A stretch of DNA of 64,000 nucleotides from an uncultured Gammaproteobacteria bacterium (GTDB lineage: Bacteria > Patescibacteriota > Microgenomatia > CAYQLK01), in the NCBI GenBank assembly GCA_964404855.1, contig CAYOLO010000001.1, forward strand, positions 443,009 through 507,008. Direction: 5' to 3'. The position numbers and the translations under genes are program-made. The notes under the pieces were generated by a model. That model saw nothing but the letters and a program-made list of their open reading frames with translations, searched no databases and was not told the DNA's origin. Of this stretch, positions 1 through 62,344 are shown piece by piece; the first letter of the stretch is position 1, and each line of letters starts with the position of its first letter.

Positions 1-297
1 ATAGAAGCAGGTCGAGAGGGTGTCGGCGTCGAGATCTGCAATTTGGGTAATGCCGGGAGAGGTATAAATTCTCCCATCGCCAAGGTCCCAGTAGTAGTCG
101 CCGCCCGCGTCGTATGCGTAGACGCTGTCGTATGTACACACGACCTGAACGCCGGCATCGCCGATGTTGTTGTTGTCGACGTCCCCGTTGCGGGGAATCA
201 TGCAGTTCGTGTTCTTGCCGCCGGCGGCCGAGACGGTCGCGGTGGTCATGAGAGCGAGGCAGAAGAGAGTGGTGGCGATCAGAATCAGCTTGCGCAA
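1..297 (-). CDS. Partial (3'-truncated by window edge) secreted hypothetical protein; GC-rich, foreign composition
   Basis: Minus-strand frame reads LRKLILIATTLFCLALMTTATVSA|AGGKNTNCMIPRNGDVDNNNIGDAG..., a classic signal peptide with an AXA cleavage site. Start is TTG at 297 (AGGAG ~12 nt upstream) or ATG at 249. GC ~60% against ~37% for the rest of the window. The ORF tracker missed it because the gene runs off the window. Confidence 0.45.
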   Translation of the reverse strand, partial: MRKLILIATTLFCLALMTTATVSAAGGKNTNCMIPRNGDVDNNNIGDAGVQVVCTYDSVYAYDAGGDYYWDLGDGRIYTSPGITQIADLDADTLSTCFY

Positions 298-678
298 GGT
301 TCTTGGTTACTCCTGTTTTGGTTTGGATGTGAAAGATCGAAGTGTTTCGCCCCCACGGCGTAACAATCGCATGCTTGAGCTAGGTACTTACGGTTAGGTG
401 AGTCTTGGCCAAGCTAGTGCGACCACGAATTATAGGACATAAATCTATATTAATCAATGGTAGATTAAGAGGCTTGTGGTCTAGATGAGATTTAGGATGG
501 TTTTGATGGTTTGAGAATCAAAAAGGATTTTATGGTGACCTCTAACTTTGGCTAGTTGATTGGTTGAGGCAGTAGGAAGTTTGCTCTGGTTCGGATGCCA
601 AACATGATTATCAAAGGTTGGGGTGATGGTACAAATTTTGTTATCAAGGTCACATTTACTATTTAGGGTTTGAATTAT

Positions 679-19955: not shown

Positions 19956-20039
19956 GCCGGGGTGGCGGAATTGGTAGACGCGCACGTCTCAAACACGTGT
20001 GAAAGCAATTTCATGTGGGTTCAAGTCCCACTCCCGGCA
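19956..20039 (+). tRNA. tRNA-Leu (anticodon CAA), class II with long variable arm
   Basis: GCCGGGG acceptor stem, D-loop AATTGGTAG, anticodon loop CTCAAAC, long variable arm, T-arm GTGGG-TTCAAGT-CCCAC. CCA is not encoded. Confidence 0.85.
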
Positions 20040-20222
20040 CATCGTTGAAATGAGCTTGATAGTAGGGAGTTTAGACGAAGTCCATTTTTCCTAAATTGGG
20101 AGCAATAAATTATTTAGTTCAAGTTTTTTTATTTCTATTTATCACAATCGTATCGACAGCTATAGGCTATTGTAGTAGTATTTGTGGCTAGCACTTTAAG
20201 CAAAGGAAGGTAGAAACTACAA

Positions 20223-21056
20223 ATGCCTGTACTTCTAGACGAAGGCAAAGACAGGATCATTGTCGCGCTTGATACTCAAAAGGTCCCCGAAGTTTCCCGT
20301 TTGGTTCAACTGCTTGCGCCCCATGTGGGGATGTTCAAGGCAGGCTTCGAGTTGACCAACGCGGTTGGAACCGCAAGGGCTCTACGGGCGATCAAGGTAA
20401 ACGGCGGGAAGGATTTCGCGGATGTCAAATTCCACGATATTCCCCCAACCGTTCTCAAGGCTGTTCAGGCAGTGGCGGGCTTCGGTCCTCATTTTCTGAA
20501 CATGCATATTCAGTCAGGTGATGCGGCGATGCAGGGTGCGGTTGCTCAAAAGGGCAACAGCTTACTGCTTGGCGTGTCAATTCTGACCTCTCTCGACCCT
20601 CAAGAGGTTCTTGAGATGTTTGTCGAGCCGTTTATTGCAATGACAGGACACGACTACGAGTACGGTCAGGCCATGGCAACAGACAGCGAAGACGCGGAAC
20701 TCGCCAAGCACGCTGTAGAGTTGCGTACTGAGTACATGAACAGGTTGGTTTTGGGCCTTGCTGAGAAAGCAGCCCGAAACGGTCTCGACGGCCTCATCTG
20801 TTCACCGCTCGAGCTCAGGTATCTCAAAGAACACGGCTCGGAAGCAGTGCATAACCTTATCAAGGTTGTGCCTGGTATCCGCATGCCGAATTCAGACGCT
20901 GACGACCAACAAAGGGTGGGAACGCCCTACCAGACAATTATTGACGGGGCAGACTACCTTGTGGTCGGGAGACCGATTCTCACTGCAGCAGATCCCGTTG
21001 CAGCTGCTCAAGCGATTGCGGCAGAGATTGACCGCGCGCTTGACGACATGGACTGA
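20223..21056 (+). CDS. pyrF: orotidine 5'-phosphate decarboxylase (long/type 2 form)
   Basis: IVALD and K..FHDIP motifs. GC ~55% island. Confidence 0.85.
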   Translation: MPVLLDEGKDRIIVALDTQKVPEVSRLVQLLAPHVGMFKAGFELTNAVGTARALRAIKVNGGKDFADVKFHDIPPTVLKAVQAVAGFGPHFLNMHIQSGDAAMQGAVAQKGNSLLLGVSILTSLDPQEVLEMFVEPFIAMTGHDYEYGQAMATDSEDAELAKHAVELRTEYMNRLVLGLAEKAARNGLDGLICSPLELRYLKEHGSEAVHNLIKVVPGIRMPNSDADDQQRVGTPYQTIIDGADYLVVGRPILTAADPVAAAQAIAAEIDRALDDMD

Positions 21057-21084
21057 AACAAGGGAGGGCAAAGTAGGTACGACA

Positions 21085-21744
21085 ATGCCAAGCGAAGAGA
21101 GAGTTGTTCGCACGATTCTCGAAAAATCAGGTGGGCTAATGATTGGGGGACACTTCGTGTTGTCCGACCAAAAGCACACTGATCGATATGTCGAGAAGAC
21201 ACGATTTTTGCGCCGCGTCGACTATCTCCAGATTCTGGCAGATATGATTGCCAAGGCGTACAGCAAAAAGAACATCGAAGTCGTGATTGCTCCCGCGGTC
21301 GGAGGTATCGGACTGGCAGCAATTGTTGCTTTTAGGATGATGCAGGCTGGTTATGGAGCAGCGGCAGAAATCCAATGGGGGTACGCTGAGCCTGTTCGCG
21401 ATAAGGACGGCGAGCTTATCCTCTACGAACTAAAGCGCGGATTCGCGCAGATGGTCGAAGGCAAAAGAGTACTGGTGGTTGAAGATGTAATCACCACAGG
21501 CAGGTCTGCTGCTCTGGTGGTCAAGGCAGTTCGAGCCAACGACGGCAACGTCGTAGGTTTGAGTGCAATCATCAACCGTGGAAGAGTAACGTCGCTTGAC
21601 GTTGGTCATCCGGGGTATTTCAAGCCTCTTCTGACCATCGACCTTCCGGTTTTTGAGCCTCAAAATTGTGAACTCTGCAAGTTCAATATCCCTGTTAATC
21701 AGGAGTTTGGACACGGAAGAGAGTTCATGCTCGGCAGGATTTAA
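21085..21744 (+). CDS. pyrE: orotate phosphoribosyltransferase
   Basis: PRTase PRPP-binding motif VLVVEDVITTGRS. Start placed at MPSEER; the longer ORF overlaps pyrF out of frame. Confidence 0.8.
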   Translation: MPSEERVVRTILEKSGGLMIGGHFVLSDQKHTDRYVEKTRFLRRVDYLQILADMIAKAYSKKNIEVVIAPAVGGIGLAAIVAFRMMQAGYGAAAEIQWGYAEPVRDKDGELILYELKRGFAQMVEGKRVLVVEDVITTGRSAALVVKAVRANDGNVVGLSAIINRGRVTSLDVGHPGYFKPLLTIDLPVFEPQNCELCKFNIPVNQEFGHGREFMLGRI

Positions 21745-28623: not shown

Positions 28624-29477
28624 GACTTTTTAAGCGAAAATCTACTAAAATCAAAAATCCAATGGCGGTTAGGACCAGTAAGGTGGGGGTTGCGGAAAAA
28701 CTTGTGATTTCAAAAAGACAGATTTTGGTCTTTTTTTCAATCTTAATGACCGGCGGTTTGACTGTGTCTTTATTGTCCGAAGGTAGAAGTTTGTATTTGC
28801 TTTCACTGCTTTTGGCTATTGCAGCAGGGCTTGTGACTGTTTGGGTTTTAAGAAAAGATTTGGCGGGTATTAAGTATTTTGTATTGCCGATTTTGCCTTT
28901 TTTCTTTACTTTTGCAATGGCGTTATTTTTTCAACTACTGCCGGAGAGGTGGTTAACGCGTTTACCATTTATGGCCGTGTATGGGGTTTCGATTTATTTA
29001 ATATTTCTTAATCAGAATGTTTACAATATTGCAGCAATTAGAACAATTGCACTACTTAGGGCAGCACACTCTGTGGGCTTACTGTTTACGCTTATATCGG
29101 TTTTTATTATCAGTAATGTCACATTCTCTCTTAGGTTTAATTTTGTGATTCTGACAGTGATTCTGACGGTTATTTGTGGGCTGATGATTTTTCAGACTCT
29201 TTGGTCTTTTGAATTGGAGGATTTGTTAACCAAAAGATTACTTAAGATGACTTTGGTACTTGGGTTAATAGTTGGACAGGTAGTACTAACTCTTTCTTTT
29301 TGGCCAGCGGAGCCGACTGTCTCTGCGATTGTGGTGACTACCGCTGTTTATGTTTTATTAGGACTAAGTCAAGCATATTATGCTGACAGGTTGTTTAGGA
29401 GAACGGCGATTGAATATATTTCGCTTGGTGTGGGAGTATTTTTGTTATTGTTTTTGACGACAAGTTGGATAGAATAG
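28620..29477 (+). CDS. hypothetical polytopic membrane protein
   Basis: About 8 predicted TM segments. Start overlaps the ruvC stop (ATGA). Confidence 0.5.
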   Translation: MRLFKRKSTKIKNPMAVRTSKVGVAEKLVISKRQILVFFSILMTGGLTVSLLSEGRSLYLLSLLLAIAAGLVTVWVLRKDLAGIKYFVLPILPFFFTFAMALFFQLLPERWLTRLPFMAVYGVSIYLIFLNQNVYNIAAIRTIALLRAAHSVGLLFTLISVFIISNVTFSLRFNFVILTVILTVICGLMIFQTLWSFELEDLLTKRLLKMTLVLGLIVGQVVLTLSFWPAEPTVSAIVVTTAVYVLLGLSQAYYADRLFRRTAIEYISLGVGVFLLLFLTTSWIE

Positions 29478-29701
29478 GGGACAAAATTTAGCTACGAATT
29501 GAAGCTATAATACGGTATCAGTTATTACCCACTAATTAAACCTATAGTATATTAAGTAATAATCAATAAAAAAGGAAAGAAAGATTAGTAAATTATTTAA
29601 TAAATATGGTAACAAAAGCCAAAAGATAAAAGTAAATAGAGGAGTAATTAAAAAAGAGAAATTAGCTTCGAGAATAGAGAAATGTGATATAGTTTGATAC
29701 A

Positions 29702-29733
29702 GTGTGAAAACTCGTGAAAATCGTCGTGAAAAC
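29702..29733. promoter_or_regulatory. three direct repeats of CGTGAAAA at 10-12 bp spacing
   Basis: Direct observation: gtgtgaaaactcgtgaaaatcgtcgtgaaaac, in an AT-rich spacer. Confidence 0.5.
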
Positions 29734-29771
29734 TTAATACCAGTCAAGGGCGGGGAGTGATAGTCATAAAA

Positions 29772-29780
29772 TGTGGATAA
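29772..29780 (-). promoter_or_regulatory. perfect DnaA-box 9-mer (TTATCCACA on minus strand)
   Basis: tgtggataa on the plus strand. Only this one perfect copy was seen in the region. Confidence 0.4.
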
Positions 29781-30075
29781 CTTAGTTTTAGTCTCATCTT
29801 TTGAGTAGCGTTAGCTAATAAGTTAGTAATGCGCACCACTCTTTTAGCTTTGAATATTTGAGAATAGCTTATTGTAATAGTCTAAATTGCGACGTTAATA
29901 CTTCATATTATATTCAGTAATATTTCATATTATAGGGTCGTTTTGGGCATAAATAGAGTGAGCGTTTTTGGGGCGGTGTAGGGCTAAATTTAGTGATCAC
30001 TTAGTAAGTGAATAGCACAAATATAGTTAACTAAATACCTAAGATAATCAGTACACCCCACTAAGGTCTAGAGCA

Positions 30076-30100
30076 GAAAAATGATATGTCGTACAATATA
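30076..30100. repeat. copy 1 of a 24-nt element AAAAATGATAYGTCGYACAATAT
   Basis: 22/24 identity with copy 2 at 30777-30803. A degenerate third echo follows (tgcgacgtaaaatat). Confidence 0.8.
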
Positions 30101-30472
30101 ACTTTTGCGACGTAAAATATAAAAATGGAGTGGGGTTGTAAGGACAAAAAATATAAGAATTAGTAAATTATTAAAAAATATTTTTTTAAAAATAATGATC
30201 TAGTTTGATTTAACCCCCTATGGATGGGTCTAATTATTTGATTGATTTGATATGGTTTGTTATCTTAACCCCATTTTGGTGAATTTTTGCGGTATATATG
30301 CGGTTATCGGCTATAAATATTAAATATTAATGATAGATTACCCTACCCAACTAATAAAAAGCCGTTTTAGGGCCAATTAGAGGGTTTTAGCCTCAATATA
30401 TCGATATTTTATGGCTAAAGTGGTATAAGTGACATTTAGATTAAGTGAACATTAAATATTTGGAGGCAGTTC

Positions 30473-30694
30473 TTGTTTATCTTAAGAATCTTTTCAGATG
30501 TCAAAGGTTTTCTGACAAGACTATCCTTAATAAGATTGGTGGTTTTGTTGGGGCTGACTTTTTCAGTCTTTGTGAGCTTAGTGGTTTGGGTCTGGACTCA
30601 AGATCCGACTTGGGCATACGTAACACTGGTACTTTTGGCTTTTGCATGGGCGGCTTTTGGTACCTCTGTTGCGCAGATTTCTCGGACCGATTGA
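30473..30694 (+). CDS. possible small 2-TM membrane protein (73 aa)
   Basis: Hydrophobic ORF lying between the two 24-nt repeat copies. No SD. Weak. Confidence 0.3.
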   Translation: MFILRIFSDVKGFLTRLSLIRLVVLLGLTFSVFVSLVVWVWTQDPTWAYVTLVLLAFAWAAFGTSVAQISRTD

Positions 30695-32339: not shown

Positions 32340-33107
32340 TTACAAGGTTTTGTAGGTAAGCGTGACTGAGAGTTTGATTTCTCCGCTTCCAGGATTAATG
32401 TCTGTTTGAGCTACCGCTGGTTCACTTCCGCCAATTCCAGATTTGAGCGAGTTGGCATCGTAGGAGTGAAGGTAGGAGTCGGAACCTTGTTCATATTCAC
32501 TGTAATAAATTATCTTGCCTAAAGAAATTCCTGCAGTTTTTGAAGTGATTTCGGCTTGTCTTTTGGCATTTTCAACCGCTAGTTCGCGTGCTTGATCGAG
32601 CGCTTTTTGGCGGTCCTTGAGACTAAACTGTAGATTATTTATGGTATTGAGTCCTCCTGCAGTTCCCGCATCAATTACTTCGCCGACTTTGTTAAGTTCT
32701 GTGACTTTGATATTGAGGGTGATATTGACGGTATAGTCTTTGATTGCCCTATTTGTAGATGTGTAATCGTAGTTGGGGTTAATGTTGTAGCTTACGGTTT
32801 TGATGTCTTCGTTTTTAATACCAAGACTTTTGAGGGAAGCTTTAACGGTCTCAATTTGGGTGTTGGCTTTGGTTTGGGCTGATTTGACACTGGTGTCATT
32901 AATAATAATACCGAGTGAAATTTCGGCTTGGTCTGGAGCAACTGCGACAATTCCTTCGCCTGTTACGGAAAAATCAGTAGAGATTGATTGGGTGGTGTGA
33001 AGAACTGGGGCGAGTTTGGTTTGAAATACCCCAACAATTAAAAGGACAGTAAAAGTAATTATAAATATAGGTCGTGAGCTATTTATTAGAAACTGTTTGA
33101 TATTCAT
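32340..33107 (-). CDS. SIMPL-domain (DUF541/YggE-like) periplasmic protein
   Basis: N-terminal TM anchor, then the two-lobed SIMPL pattern (EGIVAVAPDQAEISLGI ... ITLNIKVT ... INPGSGEIKLSVTLTY). Confidence 0.75.
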   Translation of the reverse strand: MNIKQFLINSSRPIFIITFTVLLIVGVFQTKLAPVLHTTQSISTDFSVTGEGIVAVAPDQAEISLGIIINDTSVKSAQTKANTQIETVKASLKSLGIKNEDIKTVSYNINPNYDYTSTNRAIKDYTVNITLNIKVTELNKVGEVIDAGTAGGLNTINNLQFSLKDRQKALDQARELAVENAKRQAEITSKTAGISLGKIIYYSEYEQGSDSYLHSYDANSLKSGIGGSEPAVAQTDINPGSGEIKLSVTLTYKTL

Positions 33108-33130
33108 AAGGTAATTGTAGCAAATTGAGG

Positions 33131-33167
33131 TAAAAAAAAGCCTCCGCTGCGGTTAAGCAACGAAGGC
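33131..33167 (-). terminator. intrinsic terminator (minus strand) ending the GC-rich ncRNA candidate
   Basis: On the minus strand: 12-bp stem agccttcgttgc-ttaacc-gcagcggaggct followed by TTTTTTTT. Confidence 0.7.
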
Positions 33168-33922
33168 TGTAATTGGTTGGCAGGGCCGCAATCACGTGTA
33201 GTGACAACGGCCCAAGTGGCGGGGTAGTATTTTCCGATTGACCGGCGGTGCTCGCAATTGAGCCGTGCCCATCAAACGGGGTTCACACTCCCCTAGGTTT
33301 TGCCTCCATAGCTTGGAGGTGGCTGCCCTACTTTTACGTCGGGGCGGACGGGCGGCCTAAAATGCGGCGGCCGATTGTCGTGACGAGACTGTGGCCTCGG
33401 CACGGGCCAGCCTAATTCGCGGGTGGCCTTCACTAGTGCCAGTTCGGCACAGCAAAACTTCGGGGAGCGCGAGCTGGTTGCCCGCGCTCCTTGCGGTCTC
33501 GGAAAACCCCCGAGACAAGGCAAAAAAAAGGACAGGCATGGCTAAGCTTGGGGTTTGATTTACAATGTGGGTACCGGATTCTCATGCGCTGAGATTCAGG
33601 CCTGAACACAGTGCTCGTCTTACCTTTTAGCAGGAAGAGGCCTCATTTCTCGTTAGTTCCCCCAGAGGGCAGAGGGGTCGCTGCAGAGTTAATAAGGTCG
33701 GCAACTTGCTTTTTCTCCCTTGTCGTGACCATGGCGCATCCTGCCCCGTTCCCCTTTTCCCCATTATGGGTAGGTGGTTCTTAGGCACGAAAGCCTTCGA
33801 ACTCCAGAGGGAGACGCTTCGAAGCGTTTAAGCTAAAACGCTACCAAGTGTTTCCCTCTAGATTGGGACAAAATGTCACTGTCGTAATATTTTTTATATG
33901 TGCGCAGTTAGTAAATAACTGT
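33131..33922 (-). ncRNA. candidate large structured ncRNA (~790 nt, GC ~58%, no ORF), class unassigned
   Basis: Lies between a perfect consensus promoter and an intrinsic terminator. Strong local GC excess in an AT-rich genome, as for rRNA/tRNA. Many stable hairpins (e.g. cctccaagctatggagg, gtctcgg-N7-ccgagac). The small ORFs in the region are GC artefacts. Confidence 0.55.
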
Positions 33923-33929
33923 GGAGAAC

Positions 33930-33958
33930 ATTATACACATTATTGGTCAATATGTCAA
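33930..33958 (-). promoter_or_regulatory. consensus sigma70 promoter TTGACA-N17-TATAAT (minus strand)
   Basis: Plus strand attata (33930-33935) ... tgtcaa (33953-33958), which is TTGACAtattgaccaataatgtgTATAAT on the minus strand. Confidence 0.75.
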
Positions 33959-61622: not shown

Positions 61623-61655
61623 TTTTCCTAACAATAATAAACAAAATATTTTTGG

Positions 61656-61690
61656 CAAGAAAAAAGGCCGGAGCTTTGTGGGCTCCGGCC
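61656..61690 (-). terminator. intrinsic terminator (minus strand; stem also usable on plus strand)
   Basis: ggccggagc-tttgtgg-gctccggcc. On the minus strand it is followed by TTTTTTCTT; on the plus strand only by TT. Confidence 0.7.
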
Positions 61691-62308
61691 TTAACGGCGG
61701 AATTGGCGAATTTGTTTTCTGTCGCTTCGCCGGCTACGACTTTTCTTTAAGTCCCTGTAACGCTGGGCAGCGGTGAGGCGTTATACCGTGTCGCGACTAA
61801 TGGCCTGGCGTTCAGGCCTGCGCTGCATGATTACTCTCCTCTCTTAACCCTTTACCGTGCTTATGGGATTGCCTTTAAGGTTGTCTCCTTGAAATAAGAA
61901 AGAAAACAACATTTTGGGCTACACGGAAGGTGAAGTCCGAGTCGGGCGACGTTTCTTGACTGACGGTCGCCTACGCTTGCCCTCATTTCGGTAGAGGGCT
62001 TTTTGAAGGGGGCTGATCCACTTCTTGTTGCAGATTGCTTATAGGGCTTACTGCAAGGTTGAAGCTAAACAGCCTGACAGAATCAGACATCCATATGTGG
62101 TCGTGCTCCTTTTACTGCCCTTGGTTTTTTCTGCCGCGCATTTGGTGCGGGATTACCTTGGGCGGTTTGGTCGATGAGGTCACGAAAAAAATGGAGTCCT
62201 CGGCCACCTTCTATTGGCTTGTTACAGACCAGAAGGATTTGGCGGCCTCATGTCCTTATTACCTCCACGTAATATGAAAGAACTATGAACAGCAATTAAG
62301 CTATCCAT
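61656..62308 (-). ncRNA. candidate large structured ncRNA (~650 nt, GC ~55%, no ORF), class unassigned
   Basis: Bounded by a perfect consensus promoter and an intrinsic terminator on the minus strand. GC-rich in an AT-rich genome. Contains an internal hairpin+T5 (61979-62004, plus-strand sense). Confidence 0.55.
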
Positions 62309-62315
62309 TGCGATA

Positions 62316-62344
62316 ATTATACCCTATAGTTATATATATGTCAA
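62316..62344 (-). promoter_or_regulatory. consensus sigma70 promoter TTGACA-N17-TATAAT (minus strand)
   Basis: Plus strand attata (62316-62321) ... tgtcaa (62339-62344), which is TTGACAtatatataactatagggTATAAT on the minus strand. Confidence 0.75.

Follow-up and report, generated by a model that had tools for sequence, protein, structure and literature searches.

Introduction

Bacterial non-coding RNAs (ncRNAs) that exceed about 500 nt and have complex folds are very rare. They comprise the ribosomal RNAs, RNase P RNA, transfer-messenger RNA (tmRNA), group I and group II introns, and the OLE, GOLLD, ROOL and HEARO RNAs, and each of these large RNAs is biochemically unusual. The RNA biology of the Patescibacteria, or candidate phyla radiation (CPR), which have genomes of about 1 Mb and few regulators, is poorly known. 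Here we describe a locus found in a 64,000-nt stretch of contig CAYOLO010000001.1 (hereafter the window), from an uncultured bacterium of this group. The locus lies between the genes gyrA and SIMPL, at 33958..33131 on the minus strand, and we put at about nine in ten the probability that it is an independent gene for a genuine structured ncRNA of some 790 nt, the first member of a new family.

The RNA joins a known kind, that of the large structured bacterial ncRNAs (OLE, GOLLD, ROOL, raiA), without being homologous to any of them; the preliminary description of the locus, made from its sequence, had drawn this comparison, which holds for size and kind but not for descent. With OLE, GOLLD and ROOL it shares a length of 600-800 nt, a stand-alone gene, covarying helices and junctions with a pseudoknot, a restricted range, and a genomic context that does not reveal its function. 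It differs from them in having no Rfam match at E<=10, in occurring in Patescibacteria rather than in Firmicutes or phages, in not lying beside tRNAs or prophage genes, and in lacking an oapA-like partner gene. The raiA motif and HEARO (IscB omega RNA) are likewise structured ncRNAs that exceed riboswitches in size and came to light through comparative genomics; those RNAs, however, measure 200-350 nt and are tied to raiA or iscB, whereas ours has neither such a linked gene nor an Rfam match. Like the 6S and Ms1-type RNAs it would act in trans and be produced in abundance from a strong promoter, but it is four times longer, lacks their long rod with a central bubble, and does not match the Rfam 6S model. 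As in RNase P RNA, including the diverged forms of CPR bacteria (PMC8172020), a core is closed by long-range helices while the peripheral helices vary; the pseudoknot partner, in contrast, lies here inside the core and not in a P17-type hairpin outside it. In the literature that we searched, no large ncRNAs of Patescibacteria were described besides diverged RNase P RNAs and group I introns.

A transcription unit with its own promoter and terminator

The unit begins with a sigma-70 promoter (TTGACA-17 nt-TATAAT; 33958..33930, minus strand) that matches the consensus at 12 of 12 positions, just as the preliminary description had read it. The exact pattern occurs at only two sites in the window, both strands considered, compared to an expectation of none from 100 shuffles. 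The pattern TTGAC[AT]-N17-TA[TC]A[AC]T was present in all 12 homologous copies of the RNA locus (described below), and the -35 and -10 hexamers were invariant in the alignment of the locus (A1). Judging from the position of the -10 box, transcription would start at about 33921-33925. At the other end, the intrinsic terminator that had been noticed directly upstream of the SIMPL gene was found at 33168..33131 (minus strand), where a 12-bp stem with a 6-nt loop (33168..33139) is followed by T8 (33138..33131). Seven of the 12 pairs of its stem are G-C. The stem, helix 32 of the consensus fold, has compensatory double changes at 8 of its 12 pairs and is 94.5% paired.

The transcript so delimited (33131-33925, about 795 nt) has 54.0% GC, compared to 39.8% for the window. 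The preliminary description had given ~58% against a genome of ~37%, somewhat overstating the figures; the contrast itself stands, and the window has no stretch richer in GC. The GC content is 59% in the 3' half and 48.9% in the 5' half, and its 200-nt peaks of 64% are the highest in the window. Many strong hairpins had been seen earlier; the z-score of the minimum free energy (MFE) against shuffles was -8.9 for the minus strand and -4.8 for the plus strand. The longest open reading frame (ORF) of the unit has 76 aa, and neither the positions nor the frames of the ORFs are kept among the homologues, in agreement with the earlier statement that no credible ORF is present.

Homologues, evolutionary rate and loss

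We fetched the contigs of close SIMPL protein clusters and searched their spacers with nhmmer. The SIMPL protein has eight close clusters at 65-96% identity, after which identity falls to 43%. The gene order gyrB, gyrA, spacer, SIMPL, xerC, DUF5656, ruvC, yebC is conserved, and full-length homologues of the RNA were identified in the gyrA-SIMPL spacer of the loci that we label L081-83, L087, L088/89/91, L096/97, L099 and L100. When 241 million metagenome records were scanned for motifs, the only additional homologues were L104, L107/109 and L110; L108 proved to be the L100 contig again, and five further hits were due to chance. Every true homologue sits between gyrA and SIMPL, with one copy per locus, and together they form six deep lineages of a single CPR/Patescibacteria clade, found in about 15 contigs across all collections searched.

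The gyrA gene upstream of the RNA is 98% identical to that of one short contig from a metagenome-assembled genome (MAG), and the next best match, at 60%, is from a Woykebacteria MAG, which places the organism among the Patescibacteria. A gyrA synteny search through 185k species genomes returned 80 loci, of which one was a 98% relative on too short a contig and the rest were at most 60% identical; in these 80 loci we found neither the RNA, by nhmmer with single sequences and with a profile, nor any long GC-rich spacer after gyrA. The RNA was also not found in IMG/VR (by motif scans), among the INPHARED phages or among the PLSDB plasmids. As far as these collections reach, the family is confined to one tight clade of Patescibacteria.

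Between lineages, the RNA is 55-66% identical over its whole length. The gyrA genes of the same lineages are 88-93% identical in protein and 76-80% in DNA, with four-fold synonymous sites only 35-45% identical (about 39%), which amounts to saturation, and the spacer upstream of the RNA promoter cannot be aligned at all. The preservation of the RNA next to saturated synonymous sites and an unalignable spacer indicates that it is under purifying selection. It evolves faster than gyrA DNA.

The lineage of L092-95, which is closest to L088 (gyrA 97.6% identical), appears to have lost the RNA: at its gyrA-SIMPL locus, the promoter and about 680 nt of the RNA are deleted. In this natural deletion variant (L092:4535-4650, also L093-L095) the last ~110 nt, comprising the last hairpin, the C/A-rich stretch and the terminator, are found directly after the gyrA stop codon, and this remnant now serves as the gyrA terminator. 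Relatives further away that share the gene order have a gyrA-SIMPL spacer of only 80 nt, and no comparable spacer was found in other CPR genomes. From the 80-nt spacers and the deletion in L092-95, we infer that the RNA gene was a lineage-specific acquisition, retained for long by the majority of descendants and apparently lost from a single lineage. That apparent loss, and the lack of the RNA in the sister groups, point to an accessory rather than an essential function.

Covariation and fold

A second alignment (A2) comprised eight distinct sequences from the six lineages, and its RNAalifold consensus has 181 pairs. These were 89.8% paired, a figure somewhat inflated (see below), compared to 40-48% when the 3' partners were slid by 1-3 columns. 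Pairs with changes on both sides numbered 55, whereas column shuffles gave 29±3.5 and sliding of the partners 15-21; none of 500 shuffles reached the observed value on any measure. Cells with G-U outnumbered those with A-C (104 and 33), which favours the minus strand as the functional one, with the same qualification. Peripheral hairpins are gained or lost whole between lineages.

The fold includes a pseudoknot. The 6-nt bulge AUGCGC (33734..33739, minus strand), between the two closing helices of the core, is complementary to the loop (33589..33585) of the hairpin CUCA-GCGCA-UGAG (helix 17; 33581..33593, minus strand). The two strands read UGCGC/GCGCA in five sequences, UGCGU/ACGCA in L088 and L099, and UGUGC/GCACA in L100, so that two positions are compensated independently. 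The pseudoknot is 100% paired, compared to 2.5-77% for slid partners, and it was recovered independently by an unbiased scan for perfect co-varying stacks.

Compensated conserved pairs, transcription signals of its own and the lack of a conserved ORF are the generic marks of a structured ncRNA gene, and the locus has all three. Together with the lack of Rfam matches reported below, they support what the preliminary description had proposed, a structured ncRNA of unassigned class. The comparison with relatives also went in favour of this proposal, for nhmmer showed the locus to be kept in them and the covariation is strongly compensatory.

Anatomy of the RNA

The following features are given from 5' to 3', all on the minus strand. 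At or just 3' of the presumed transcription start lies the hairpin H0 (CAGUUA-UUUAC-UAACUG; 33905..33921), formed by helix 1 with 6 pairs, 3 of them with double changes, and 97.9% paired. It is followed by a single-stranded stretch at 33891..33904, (C)GCACAUAUAAAAA or GCACAUAUAAAA, which is nearly invariant in all lineages. The long hairpin H1 (33803..33862; helix 3, with 24 pairs, 8 double changes and 93.8% pairing) has a variable tip and the invariant internal-loop sequences GGGAAACACUUGG / AAGCGUCUCCC. Next come a variable hairpin and a hairpin with the conserved sequence GGAAAAGGGG (33751..33798; helices 4-6), where the sequence differs in each lineage and the pairing is kept.

The core domain (33530..33746) is a multi-helix junction closed by a long-range stack of 13 bp, in which GGGCAGG-(AUGCGC)-CAUGGU (33746..33728) pairs with GCCAUG-CCUGUCC (33542..33530). 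In the two closing helices (7 and 8) pairing is complete (100%) and 3 pairs are compensatory, and CAYGG/CCRUG co-varies. We also considered an alternative, P1-like closing helix, GACAG/CUGUC, and rejected it: it is GGGCAGG/CCUGUCC that co-varies, with GAGCAGG/CCUGCUC in L099. The interior of the core has a long arm of variable length, capped by a GCAA tetraloop in its short versions, a helix GCUAAAAGGU/ACCCCAAGC, and the hairpin CUCA-GCGCA-UGAG. Helices 13-16 show compensatory changes, among them a flip of GG/CC to CC/GG in L088, in the helix GCUAAAAGGU/ACCCCAAGC.

A U-rich linker (U8; 33522..33529) joins the core to the 3' domains; it is U-rich in all lineages, with its run sometimes interrupted. 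The U-run and the following GCC may pair with GGCAAAA at about 33302-33310. We regard this pairing as tentative, since the helix concerned (18) is only 75% paired, with 4 double changes. The variable multi-hairpin domain that follows (33302..33521; helices 19-26) has hairpins present or absent according to lineage: two of them (33464-33521) occur only in the lineage of the window and in L088, and L100 lacks most of the domain. The conserved 3' rod (33221..33293; helices 27-30) is irregular and runs from GGGGAGUGU to AUACUACCCC, with a tip hairpin GCUC-AAUUGC-GAGC; it is present in all six lineages, and helix 27 has double changes at 4 of its 9 pairs. Between the rod and the terminator are a last variable hairpin (33183-33214), whose sequence differs in every lineage, and a single-stranded C/A-rich stretch, CCAACCAA(C) (33169-33182), within which CCAACCAAC is conserved in five of the six lineages. 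As possible targets of CCAACCAAC, its complement has 28 matches in the window, compared to 17±4 expected, but these are scattered and have no meaningful enrichment or position.

Searches for known RNA families

At gathering thresholds, Rfam 15 identified only a tRNA-Leu in the window and nothing in seven homologous loci. At E<=10, searches of 1401 nt of the window, of 1311 nt of L099 and of the 271-nt core (for the core, with matches listed down to 9-12 bits) gave noise only, consisting of terminator look-alikes and miRNA-like hairpins; thus none of these three lineage or region searches matched a known family at either threshold. This includes RNase P (types A and B, archaeal and type T; RF00010, RF00011 and their clan) and the OLE, GOLLD, ROOL, HEARO and raiA models, none of which matched at gathering score or at E<=10, as well as the signal recognition particle (SRP) and 6S models, which gave no match at E<=10. 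For tmRNA, neither ARAGORN, run on the window and 9 homologous loci, nor Rfam returned any prediction. The absence of RNase P, tmRNA and SRP signals that had been reported from the sequence is thus confirmed by Rfam 15 and ARAGORN. A group I or group II intron was considered and rejected: no intron model matched, and the unit, which has a promoter and a terminator of its own, is flanked by intact genes and carries no reverse transcriptase (RT) or homing-endonuclease ORF.

Alternative explanations

RNase P RNAs scored below the Rfam thresholds in 10 of 35 complete CPR genomes, with helices missing or extended (Lui et al. 2021, PMC8172020), and diverged CPR forms can score very low in Rfam (PMC8172020), so the unit might be this clade's highly diverged RNase P RNA carrying a 3' extension. 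The nested, P1-P2-P3-P4-like order of the core helices would fit, as would the short RNase-P-like words GGGCAGGAUGCGCC, GGUAAGAC and CCCCAAGCUUA (six such words being co-linear by eye) and the fact that no other RNase P RNA was found in the 64-kb window. Nevertheless, the RNase P models stay below ~9-12 bits on the core and on the whole RNA of two lineages, and the echoes of RNase P mentioned in the preliminary description are at chance level: Smith-Waterman scores against an uncurated sequence of E. coli M1 RNA were 23-29, compared to 25-27±3.5 for dinucleotide shuffles, with one local alignment at 27 where shuffles gave 26.2±3.6. The canonical P4, made of CR-I GGAAAGUCC and CR-V ACAGAANCCGGCUUA with a bulged U and A, is not there; the CR-I-like GGAAAAGGGG forms the 3' strand of a hairpin that is local, and the CR-V-like ACCCCAAGC pairs with GCUAAAAGGU, in two 3-bp helices around an internal loop that show covariation. 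At the position of ACCCCAAGC, L088 has GGUUAUGG without a C-run, and only ~70 nt lie inside the equivalent of P4. Moreover, the gene is deleted at the locus in the L092 lineage, and 55-66% RNA identity at 88-93% gyrA identity is far too fast for a housekeeping RNA. We therefore consider RNase P a very improbable identity. Somewhat better, though still improbable, are the prospects of a split of the unit into two RNAs, with one of ~400 nt ending at the internal U8 (33529..33522) and a separate or processed 3' RNA of ~390 nt. The U8 does come immediately after the 13-bp closing stack of the core, and the 5' and 3' parts differ in evolutionary rate, the latter being much reduced in L100. No promoter-like site was found before the 3' part, however; the closing stack, with its span of ~200 nt, does not have the form of a canonical terminator hairpin; L100, L088 and L104 have breaks in the U-run; and the U-run with its GCC may be engaged in helix 18, with GGCAAAA in the 3' part.

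The position of the RNA, always upstream of SIMPL and on its strand, with the terminator ending ~25-35 nt before the start codon in the window lineage and L087, would suit a giant cis-regulatory leader of SIMPL, similar to an attenuator or riboswitch and acting through the terminator. We give this very little credence: a 330-550-nt element with its own promoter and terminator intervenes between RNA and SIMPL in L088, L096, L099 and L100, that is, in four of the six lineages, which argues that the RNA is not a leader of SIMPL. SIMPL also occurs without the RNA in the L092 lineage and in more distant relatives (L111), the window has a TACAAT -10 box between the terminator and the SIMPL ATG, no alternative anti-terminator pairing was seen, and 600-800 nt far exceeds known leaders. 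Hardly better is the chance that the locus is a functionless remnant or passenger of foreign or selfish DNA, with a structure that only reflects GC richness and ancestry. The GC content of 54% against 39.8% in the window, the insertion into a spacer of only 80 nt in distant relatives, the variable length of the RNA and its absence in one lineage would all agree with such an origin, and group I introns are reported to be common in Patescibacteria (PMC13011429). Yet the consensus promoter and the terminator are intact in six lineages whose synonymous sites are saturated, compensatory changes lie far above both controls with the pseudoknot co-varying, and flanking repeats, transposase, RT, intron models and host exons are all lacking; nor do the phage, plasmid and viral collections hold any copy, each locus having just one. 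Least probable of all, to the point that we hardly consider it, is that the locus encodes one or more small proteins. It does contain sense-strand ORFs of 53-76 aa; these, however, differ in position, frame and length in every lineage, even between L104 and L109, which are nearly identical (~100%), so that none is conserved among the homologues. The indels are hairpin-sized and not codon-sized, and the substitutions in stems are compensatory.

Several points weigh against a new family of structured ncRNA, which we nevertheless prefer. The start site, the 3' end and the abundance of the RNA are deduced from the sequence. The structure rests on only 8 distinct sequences from 6 lineages and was predicted from the same alignment and strand on which it was tested, which inflates the paired percentage and the G-U excess, and much less so the counts of compensatory pairs. 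The collection scans required exact motif matches, so that divergent relatives elsewhere may have escaped them. No partner protein is indicated, the neighbours being housekeeping genes (yebC, ruvC, DUF5656, xerC, SIMPL, gyrA/B, holB, pilB). Finally, a selfish or decaying element could also show the narrow range, the fast evolution and the apparent loss in one lineage that are seen here.

Neighbouring elements and other features of the window

The downstream neighbour of the RNA, and no part of it, is the SIMPL (PF04402) gene (32340..33107, minus strand). Directly after the RNA terminator there is a TACAAT -10-like box (33119..33114, minus strand), 6 nt upstream of the SIMPL ATG (33107..33105). 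Since this box is so close to the ATG, the SIMPL mRNA may be leaderless, or else SIMPL may be translated from read-through transcripts.

The element that stands between the RNA and SIMPL in relatives was located at L099:3480-3998, L100:824-1321, L096:4666-5000, L088:4640-5000 and L092:4640-5000; the window lacks it. Its features are a separate TTGAC(A/T)-17-TAnAAT promoter and the invariant motif CUACCUCUCCAGUCG, and a terminator of its own is clear at its end in L099 and L100. No Rfam match was obtained for it (at E<=10 in L099, and at gathering thresholds elsewhere), and no tmRNA was called.

The only other perfect TTGACA-17-TATAAT promoter of the window (62344..62316, minus strand) opens a second promoter-to-terminator unit (62344..61655, minus strand) of about 650 nt, with 46.5% GC, an MFE z-score of -4.4 and no ORF longer than 80 aa. 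It ends in an 11-bp hairpin with T6, at about 61700-61660. It has no Rfam match at E<=10 and no homologue in the loci that we fetched, and it has the look of another large ncRNA gene, unrelated to the first. We found no relatedness among the three RNA-like units, that is, the main RNA, the element next to SIMPL and this unit.

Two other GC-rich regions were considered as further RNAs and rejected. The one at 39.0-39.5 kb reads as an ordinary ORF of 173 aa ending at a terminator. The one at 20-22 kb corresponds to pyrF and a phosphoribosyltransferase (PRTase) gene: an island of 50% GC (19956-21744), right after tRNA-Leu(CAA), holds pyrF (orotidine monophosphate decarboxylase) and an overlapping phosphoribosyltransferase ORF. 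The composition of this island suggests a horizontal acquisition beside the tRNA. In the relative L112, pyrF and the PRTase gene are instead found directly upstream of SIMPL. The first 300 nt of the window (1-300) have ~60% GC, as much as the RNA; they lie at the window edge, where ORFs running off the end are not listed.

We also observed a stretch of about 1 kb (29477-30473) with no ORF of 150 aa or more and with 26-33% GC at 30000-30400, located between the DUF5656 gene and a 73-aa ORF followed by xerC. A gap of similar size is found at the same place in L088, L092, L096 and L099. A replication origin, or some other non-coding element, could account for this stretch.

Proposed role and implications

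The combination of a conserved core with variable peripheral helices resembles RNase P RNA, group I and II introns and the expansion segments of rRNA, and is unlike base-pairing small RNAs or riboswitches. A role in trans as a scaffold, or as part of a ribonucleoprotein (RNP), may be suggested, although only tentatively. Transcription from the sigma-70 promoter would yield an abundant, stable, folded RNA acting in trans, whose working part would be the pseudoknotted core with its invariant unpaired nucleotides. Most likely the core would be a platform to which a protein or ligand binds, and it might also be a catalytic centre. Together with the core, the unpaired stretches that are invariant (AUGYGY, CGACAWGG, GUGUUCAG, GYACCCAC and GCUUA) may build a surface for specific binding or for catalysis. 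The variable domains, like the periphery of RNase P or group I/II RNAs, would be dispensable, and the function would be accessory and not essential. Taking the ncRNA of a new family and its role as a trans-acting scaffold or RNP as a single explanation, we judge the whole, as a compromise between its firmer and its weaker part, to have somewhat better than even chances.

A strongly promoted RNA gene of ~800 nt that is kept in a reduced genome implies a real balance of cost and benefit. Its importance is tempered by its occurrence in one clade and about 15 contigs, and by its being apparently dispensable in one sublineage. The two further RNA-like units suggest a hidden set of large RNAs in reduced genomes. 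A further reading, rather improbable, is that the RNA is a new class of large functional RNA, namely a ribozyme or an architectural RNA that assembles with itself or into an RNP, specific to a lineage of ultra-small Patescibacteria, and one of several unrelated large ncRNA genes in their reduced genomes. If this were true, CPR bacteria would, for all the extreme reduction of their genomes, have kept a hidden repertoire of large structured RNAs.

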